Assembly: GCA_903894565.1 (NCBI GenBank)
Contig: CAITQP010000006.1
Coordinates: 32,033 to 96,032, forward strand
Source of the DNA: an uncultured bacterium
GTDB lineage: Bacteria; Patescibacteriota; Minisyncoccia; Phycocordibacterales; UBA9973
Reading direction: 5' to 3'
DNA length: 64,000 nt
In this document: in pieces, positions 39,631-40,068 of the stretch
How the letters are laid out: the number at the start of each line of letters is the position of its first letter
How positions within the stretch are numbered: the stretch's first letter is position 1
The notes under the pieces: model-generated
The model's input: the letters and a program-made list of their open reading frames with translations, nothing else
What the model was told of the DNA's origin: nothing
Databases searched by the model: none
Position numbers and translations under genes: made by a program

Positions 39631-40068
39631 GTGAATGGCACAAATGGCACACAAAACAGCGGTATTTGGCACTGTACCATTTACATTGTAAATGGCATGA
39701 ATGGCAGGCAAAAACGTGGTTTTAGACACCTTGCCATTCACAAAAAAAATCGACCGAGCCGAATTTGTAAATGTTACAGATGAGACACAAAAAGGCGGTA
39801 TTTCAGACTGTCTCACTTACGAAATTTTTAAACTAAAAATGTTACGAATGTTACACTTTTTTCACTGTTTTGAAAGTGTAACATTTGGGAATTTAGGTGT
39901 TCCATTTGTCTAAAACGAGCCATATTTTTCAATAGAATGGGACACTCCTACCGACATACAAATCGATGTAACATTTCAAGTTTGAGTGTAACATTTGAAA
40001 TGCCTACAAATGCTAAGAAATGAGACAAATGAGACACTGAAACATGAGGTGTCTCGAATGTCTCATTT
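39631..40068. promoter_or_regulatory. Array of palindromic / tandem AATGNNACAC-type sites upstream of serine recombinase 2 (candidate att / recombinase or regulator binding sites)
   Basis: Sites include 39631–39741 (GTGAATGGCA...TGCCATTCAC), 39642–39682, 39780–39816, 39838–39887 and 40018–40068 (AAATGAGACAAATGAGACAC-11-GTGTCTCGAATGTCTCATTT). Confidence 0.6.

Follow-up and report, generated by a model that had tools for sequence, protein, structure and literature searches.

Recombinase LSR2 and the islands of the window

The intergenic region 39625-40070 of the 64,000-nucleotide stretch of DNA analyzed here (the window) lies between a metallophosphoesterase gene on its left (38376-39491, minus strand) and, on its right, the gene for LSR2, a large serine recombinase of 439 amino acids (40135-41454, plus strand). 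A resolvase catalytic domain, a recombinase domain, and a zinc ribbon with coiled coil (Pfam Resolvase, Recombinase, and Zn_ribbon_recom) assign LSR2 to the large serine recombinases, and its full-length predicted fold, a model of moderate confidence (mean pLDDT 69), matches the serine-integrase structures 9dxd, 9iu2, and 4kis; in this model, no domain is present beyond the catalytic, recombinase, and zinc-ribbon domains. A paralogue, LSR1, 54% identical to LSR2, is encoded at 27977-29296, and alignment of the two backs the ATG at 40135 as the LSR2 start. The recombinase family matched 8000 database clusters at E <= 1e-30 and is very widespread in Patescibacteria metagenome-assembled genomes, with at least 586 matching stretches in the GTDB species genomes; every relative fetched came from a Patescibacteria-type genome of this kind. 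The 120 clusters (at 90% identity) that were listed are all 74-100% identical to LSR2, a degree of conservation unusual for the integrase of a mobile element.

The 5' region of the recombinase gene (40069-40134, plus strand; GTTACCAAC...GACTCCTCGGCGGGGTTGCGTCATCAATG) is conserved, even where no array adjoins the gene, as in the relative L005. A conserved leader of about 55 nt precedes the gene in the window (40080-40134), in L005 (7690-7753), and in L015 (2220-2281); it contains ACTCC-TCGGC-GGGGT, of which both sides are changed in L015 (ACTCA...TGGGT) with the pairing kept, and which resembles the CTCGGTCGGGGT box found at the end of the left-end sequence described below.

Two islands are stacked at a tRNA-Arg gene: island A (39499-44155), which carries the array and LSR2, and island B (44156-47594). 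The right-end (P-arm) sequence of island A (44074-44155, plus strand) forms an 81% direct repeat with 47513-47617, is the same sequence that precedes tRNA-Val in the relative L001, and is directly followed by a tRNA-3'-like fragment (44156-44180). The second right-end copy (47513-47594) abuts tRNA-Arg(tct) (47595-47667), the integration target, the two together spanning 47513-47667 on the minus strand. Island B encodes a Fic/DOC protein with a C-terminal winged helix-turn-helix (44314-45363) and a TOTE-type AEP primase with an SF2 helicase (45375-47507), and, although a copy of the right-end sequence belongs to it, contains neither a recombinase nor modules of the kind described below. A third island (about 24097-31290) is located at tRNA-Ser(tga) (31291-31380) and contains a single module (U0), Shedu, and LSR1; its left end (24097-24280, plus strand) is made up of a left-end box (24097-24200) and U0 (24228-24280), and its cargo includes a Shedu protein (SduA_C; 26227-27471, minus strand), a fragment of an FAD-oxidoreductase (25257-26087), and, on the minus strand, two uncharacterized genes. 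In all, the cargo of the window islands is defensive (Shedu, Fic, and TOTE), with no packaging genes. Within the tRNA-Ser island, a 112-aa open reading frame (24430-24768), for which no family match was obtained, begins inside a 21-nt inverted repeat (24400-24446) with 90% complementarity and a loop of 5 nt; this repeat is possibly an operator, unrelated to the repeats of the array.

Anatomy of the array

The preliminary description reported a dense array of motifs at 39631-40068, and the array is real: 14 of the 39 window matches to the 8-mer core AATGNNAC fall in 39634-40067, a clustering far beyond chance. The background outside the array, about 0.35 matches per kb, predicts about 0.15 in 438 nt (P < 1e-20, Poisson estimate), and the 500-nt bin at 39501 holds 11 matches against a mean of 0.30 per bin. 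Of the 10 copies of the strict 10-mer AATGNNACAC in the window, for which 2.5 were expected, 7 lie in the region, and none of 100 shuffles reached 10; the reported figure of at least ten copies is accordingly correct for the 8-mer core and too high for the strict 10-mer. Every motif sequence quoted was found in the region, with two starts shifted by one to 39779 (Site C) and 39837 (the TTA palindrome). The 20-nt inverted repeat (40018-40037 and 40049-40068) was recovered by the repeat finder with 85% complementarity and an 11-nt spacer, its end lying 67 nt upstream of the ATG at 40135, or 46 nt upstream of the TTG that opens the longest open reading frame. In addition, the repeat finder revealed three direct units of about 60 nt (39625-39684, 39682-39741, and 39761-39820), and a fourth unit, U0, is situated at 24228-24280, 3.7 kb upstream of the gene for LSR1; all four were absent from the preliminary description.

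The array (39634-40067) resolves into about eight modules, each composed of two tandem 9-mers (D1 and D2, AAAYNNNAC, with a 9-nt period), a spacer, and one inverted 9-mer (INV). The total length is about 50 bp, or 38-39 bp in a short class. Counted from the last base of D2 up to INV, the spacer is mostly 22-24 nt long, with a few modules at 11-12 nt, so that one helical turn separates the two classes (about 23 and about 12 nt); by another measuring convention, the modal spacer in the unbiased metagenome scan is 20-21 nt. The spacer holds a conserved TAYTTAAGGGTATTTT-like core, with the asymmetric consensus ACAC-TAYWWAAGGGTATTTT-GT in the unbiased metagenome sample, and this motif recurs within the left-end box. 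The 3-5-nt module core is variable (GGC, TTA, AGA, GGG, GCG, CGGA, TCTG, TAAG, and others; more than 13 variants) and co-varies within a module, an exact inverted copy of a pair's own core being found for 24% of tandem pairs vs 2% for foreign cores. Where D1 and D2 differ, INV mostly matches D2 (U3, U0, and L014), and the geometry is kept despite core mismatch, as with a GGG direct and a TTA inverted copy.

Module U1 (39633-39682, plus strand, core GGC) consists of D1 GAATGGCAC, D2 AAATGGCAC, a 23-nt spacer with GGTATTT, and INV GTACCATTT, and is followed by the degenerate module U2 (39690-39741, plus strand, core GGC; AAATGGCAT GAATGGCAG ... TGCCATTC). In U3 (39769-39818, plus strand), the D1 core is TTA and the D2 core AGA, INV matching D2 (GTCTCAC). 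Module P1 (39837-39887, plus strand, core TTA) comprises AAATGTTACGAATGTTACAC, a 13-nt loop region, and GTGTAACATTT, with 13-nt arms that are perfectly complementary. Next comes a divergent pair (39896-39945), in which an inverted GGA copy GTGTTCCATTT and a direct GGG copy AATGGGACAC are separated by 28 nt, and then two inverted TTA copies TGTAACATTT found by the repeat finder 20 nt apart (39966-39997, minus strand). The first of these lies about 23 nt (22-24, depending on the convention) past the direct GGG copy, so that the module spacing is preserved between unlike cores. Two degenerate tandem copies, AAATGCCTAC and AAATGCTAAG, precede module P2 (together 40001-40068, plus strand); P2 itself (40018-40068, plus strand, core AGA) is a 51-bp near-palindrome with the order D1 D2, 11 nt, INV2 INV1. 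The single module U0 (24228-24280, plus strand) at the left end of the tRNA-Ser island has the cores AGA and GGG. An orthologous array is carried by L001, the recombinase of which is 95% identical to LSR2; the two arrays are distinguished by a 9-nt indel, indicating copy-number change by slippage. At the place of the divergent pair of the window, both L001 and L027 contain an additional 9-nt GGG copy. Micro-ORFs were considered as the function of the array, many of the 9-mers containing ATG, and were rejected on the ground that several variants lack it.

The left-end box and its occurrence among relatives

The alignment between L001 and the window begins abruptly at 39499 (TGTGCCCCAACCGCG...), the host flanks to the left being unlike, which places the boundary between element and host, and hence the crossover, at about 39499-39503. 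At the right ends, a conserved sequence of about 85 nt adjoins the 3' end of a minus-strand tRNA gene (tRNA-Arg(tct) at 47595 in the window, tRNA-Val(gac) in L001), and a TGTGC core is common to both junctions, at tRNA 3' ends. Since the left junction is 134 nt to the left of the first module, the array is located inside the element and is not the crossover site. The suggestion in the preliminary description that the array might be a set of att sites is therefore not borne out: the modules occupy 39633-40068, and it is the boundary with the TGTGC core that abuts the tRNA 3' ends. The 9-mer is likewise absent from the real att arms, save for a GTCTC resemblance to the P' arm, and the 22 right ends examined contain no modules. 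An apparent identity of the outer motif of the P arm with the 9-mer, seen in three loci, was discarded on finding no fixed TTGAG across the 22 right ends.

From the junction extends a conserved left-end sequence of about 105 nt, the LE box (39499-39603, plus strand), delimited by the start of L001 homology and an nhmmer model. It consists of a P' arm that resembles a tRNA 3' end and T-arm (TGTGCCCCAACCGCGTCTCGGACG), followed by a TAAG(C/G)GTTCTTTGG block and then by a CCGCATAGGGGTC box. The first 6-8 nt track the 3' end of the target tRNA, reading GTGCCCC where this is Arg and GCGGAG where it is Ser, and are succeeded by the T-arm-like GGTCTCGAACC, from which we infer that the latter is the P' arm, probably resembling the B' arm. 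With the nhmmer model, the LE box was detected at about 17 distinct recombinase loci and at 46 of the 80 metagenome loci; in each case, it shares the strand of the array and directly precedes it. At those 46 metagenome loci, the gap between the LE end and the first module is mostly 4-17 nt. A known RNA family or a tRNA-like RNA encoded by the LE box was considered and rejected: neither the box nor the array has an Rfam match, single-sequence folds of the box are no better than those of shuffles, and no conserved fold emerges from the consensus, with an energy of -0.5 kcal.

In the unbiased metagenome scan, all three cores were left free; more than 120 stretches were returned, and 80 of these were fetched. 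D1, D2, and INV share the same core in 55 of the 80 modules; D2 equals INV in 81%, where 52% would be expected, and the AGA core (AAATGAGAC) accounts for 71%. An LE box with a single module is the norm, relative to which the eight modules of the window and the nine of L058 are expansions. The recombinase gene, typically adjoining a tRNA gene, lies 0.07-8.6 kb to the right of the module. In the window, L001, and L015, the array is directly upstream of it; in most relatives, 1.4-8.6 kb of variable cargo intervenes. In 48 of 66 loci (73%), the first gene past the module is convergent, its stop codon often falling inside the module or no more than 5 nt from it; in many of the metagenome loci L107-L186, this stop is the TGA within the inverted 9-mer (AAATGAGAC, minus strand). 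In L027b, homology to the window stops exactly after the last module and is followed by other cargo. A small conserved partner gene beside the arrays was also sought, and BLAST clustering of the proteins near arrays, down to 35 aa, yielded the recombinase as the only shared family. The cargo of the relatives is diverse, with a ParB-methylase, small terminase (TerS), large terminase (TerL), and a Zn-ribbon protein with a weak MerR/HTH_17 match as the recurrent members. TerS is about 1.8-2.0 kb from the LE box in L011, L131, L175, L197, and L066, the distance being larger or TerS undetected elsewhere, and the Zn-ribbon protein, which clusters with a neighbor of the L123 module, is about 40 nt to 1.7 kb from the module in L039, L086, L092, and L102. 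A scan of IMG/VR for the AGA tandem returned mostly coding repeats or chance matches, L092, L102, and L103 alone being genuine.

As judged from these sequences, the array is an unusually expanded version of the module that, together with the LE box, forms a conserved cap at the left end of large-serine-recombinase islands inserted at tRNA 3' ends in Patescibacteria. In practice, the LE-plus-module signature can serve to mark where mobile islands have their left boundary in Patescibacteria, the mobile elements of which are poorly charted, and the islands so marked carry defense and phage-like genes. The tRNA-mimicking end also suggests how islands come to be stacked at tRNA genes. In L016 (7150-7345) and L011 (2700-3135), a recombinase gene or pseudogene ends at the tRNA-like start of an LE box, and in L175 (oriented; 4895-6494) it ends about 0.5 kb before that start, suggesting that the LE box is usable as a secondary target, with islands stacking head to tail.

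Candidate functions of the modules

The role of the modules is worth comparing with those of repeats in known systems. In the res sites of Tn3/gamma-delta (sites II and III) and Sin (site II), accessory sites of recombinase size, with short end motifs and varied spacing, lie beside the crossover. As in res, several sites with direct and inverted motifs adjoin the crossover of a serine recombinase, and in the window they are also upstream of its gene; unlike res, the recombinase belongs to the large serine integrases, the 9-mer has a variable core and is apparently distinct from the motif of the real att arms, and the modules are found at one end of the element only, the 22 right ends being free of them. 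The subterminal repeats of transposons (the TnsB sites of Tn7, the Mu ends, the ends of the IS607 family, and CACTA) are uniform within an element and bound by the transposase. The array shares with them the short motifs in both orientations inside one end and the variable copy number, and differs in that the cores vary between modules. A further resemblance is to the arm-type and bending-protein sites in the P' arm of lambda attP, with tandem direct repeats about one helical turn apart that are located within about 100-150 bp of the core and in attL after integration (PMC1470463). The arm-type sites of lambda control directionality (PMC1470463), and by analogy a role of the modules in directionality may be inferred; however, unlike the lambda tyrosine integrase, the large serine recombinase has no separate arm-binding domain in the predicted model. 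The att sites of serine integrases are described as shorter than 50 bp and are reported to function without accessory DNA sites (PMC1470463). Tycheposons are tRNA-targeting islands with serine or tyrosine recombinases (10.1101/2020.12.28.424599), and, like the islands described here, they are small, carry cargo, and build up in tandem at tRNA genes; the abstract of that report mentions no LE-plus-module end cap. In the literature searched on such arrays and elements, we likewise found no description of this end cap, and no similar DNA was found in annotated phages or plasmids. Mobile elements with terminal repeat arrays are already known; what appears to be new is the link of such an array to large serine recombinases, with an arm that mimics a tRNA and cores that can be swapped.

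We tentatively propose, with confidence somewhat short of even, that the array represents accessory nucleoprotein modules of the attL/P' arm, and that the modules are candidate protein-binding sites. One or more duplex-DNA-binding proteins are favored by the helical phasing, the fixed orientation to the LE box, the asymmetric conserved spacer, the geometry kept despite core mismatch, and the lack of an RNA signal. The proposal in the preliminary description of accessory binding sites of a mobile element hence remains the best reading; what sequence comparison has established is a conserved, oriented, and helically phased cis-element at the left end with the recombinase as its sole conserved neighbor, the binding itself being putative. 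In the predicted mechanism, a protein would bind the 9-mers on one face of the double helix, and this binder might be the recombinase or else a factor acting in trans, for example a directionality protein or one supplied by a helper phage. A nucleoprotein complex would then be built beside attL/attP and may govern recombination (directionality, synapsis, or site protection) or another end-specific step. Evidence against the proposal comes from the recombinase model, which shows no further domain, from the lack of the 9-mer in the real att arms and of modules at the right ends, and from the reported independence of serine integrases from accessory sites. Nor does one sequence-specific protein account for more than 13 core variants; the matching of cores within a module may reflect specificity classes of the binder or the homogenization of neighboring copies by slippage and template switching, and the eight modules of the window would have arisen by accretion of units with different cores.

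An extension of this proposal, which we consider doubtful, is that the large serine recombinases of Patescibacteria, unlike all characterized serine integrases, use a higher-order attL/attP architecture in which a tRNA-mimicking P' arm is combined with phased modules whose cores encode the partner. If this were true, the interchangeable 3-5-nt cores would specify the permitted trans partner (a recombinase paralogue, a directionality factor, or a helper-phage terminase), and multi-core arrays would be "multi-key" ends, rendering defense-carrying islands movable by several helpers. Serine integrases are prized as tools in that only two short sites are needed; if a conserved accessory architecture were common to a widespread natural family of them, that family would be controlled in a different way.

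Several of the same observations can be read in terms of RNA or single-stranded DNA. The D2 and INV arms could pair into an 11-bp stem that acts as a bidirectional terminator or insulator at the island boundary, or that forms a small RNA's 3' end; the co-variation of the arm cores, the layout of A-tract, stem, and T-tract, the long near-perfect hairpins formed by P1 and P2, and the 73% of downstream genes that converge on the module with stops within about 5 nt would all be in agreement with this role. However, the loops of about 20 nt are conserved and asymmetric, unlike those of the short-loop, GC-rich terminators at 31221-31254 and 42147-42217, and a terminator scan called none at the modules. 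The difference of one helical turn between the spacer classes, the geometry kept where the cores differ, the mismatches in the module arms, which in our reading show no wobble bias, and the missing Rfam match also speak against paired strands, and the additional D1 copy and the fixed orientation to the LE box are left unexplained. On balance, we regard a hairpin function as rather unlikely.

Another possibility is that the modules are docking sites for helpers, namely the small terminase (pac-like sites) or a DNA-binding directionality factor of co-resident phages, with the cores matching different helpers and multi-core arrays rendering a cargo island mobilizable by several of them. Such docking would account for both the diversity and the co-variation of the cores, and it fits with the ParB-methylase, TerS, and TerL genes that in many relatives follow soon after the LE box and module, with the Zn-ribbon protein and its weak MerR/HTH_17 match near the module in four loci, and with window islands that hold defense cargo without packaging genes. 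Nevertheless, most loci bearing TerS have no LE box or array in reach, the distances to TerS vary from 1.8 to 9 kb, the helix-turn-helix assignments are below the Pfam thresholds, and a correlation between protein and core could not be established, so that helper docking appears unlikely.

The preliminary description had also considered operators for a mobile-element regulator. Operators and promoter elements through which recombinase 2 would be autoregulated agree with the situation in the window, L001, and L015, where the array directly precedes the recombinase gene, and recall the autoregulation of res/tnpR. As a general role, this is quite improbable because the recombinase gene is 0.07-8.6 kb away (1.4-8.6 kb in most relatives, with variable cargo between) and the next gene is usually convergent (48 of 66 loci). 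The proposal is further weakened by the recombinase gene of L005, which keeps its conserved 5' region without an array, by L027b, in which homology ends exactly at the last module, and by a promoter scan at background, with 1 site vs 2.0 expected. Sigma-70 promoters, one per module, were rejected as well, the spacings of 19-20 or 11-12 nt being unfit in our reading of the consensus, the -35 TTG falling in the variable part, and the scan remaining at background. D2 together with the spacer reads GAGACACTATAAAGGG, within which GACACTATA is shared with the SP6 promoter, and the variable core falls where promoters of the T7/SP6 type encode specificity; promoters for such single-subunit polymerases were nevertheless dismissed, no polymerase of this kind being present in any inspected locus and the window modules being devoid of the TATA part.

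That the modules are themselves recombination sites, as pseudo-att sites or landing pads for the insertion or exchange of cassettes by the recombinase, is very unlikely. The lengths of about 50 bp and 38-39 bp recall those of attP and attB and fit the size of an att dyad (about 40-50 bp), the cargo starts precisely where the last module ends on the right, and L058 has two adjacent modules with swapped cores. However, the break-points are at the edges rather than the centers of the modules, no module or half-module is present on the far side of the cargo, the module arms are unlike the real att arms, whether of the tRNA 3' end, the LE box, or the right end, and the mapped junction is elsewhere. 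In the metagenomes, a search for the junction of an excised circle gave 0 matches. In L058 (6610-6760), the first of the adjacent modules combines two ATCTGAC copies with an inverted ATAAGAC, and the second combines two ATAAGAC copies with an inverted ATCTGAC; the two may be nested, or the pattern may record an exchange between modules.

Lastly, iterons of a replication origin for the excised element are highly improbable, for, although short phased repeats in both orientations flank A/T-rich DNA and an AEP primase-helicase is encoded in the adjacent island, the modules have no conserved replication gene beside them, they normally occur singly, and the core varies within one array.

Concerning the cargo of the relatives, a cluster of a ParB_N-DNA methylase with small and large terminases is found in L011 (3733-6728) and in at least 30 other recombinase loci. 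The islands with this cluster are only about 9 kb in size and have no visible capsid genes, and may be satellite-like or decayed prophages. The island of L005 contains a diversity-generating retroelement (bAvd and reverse transcriptase) and a PIF1 helicase (1030-2432), and ends with two tandem serine recombinase genes beside tRNA-Lys.
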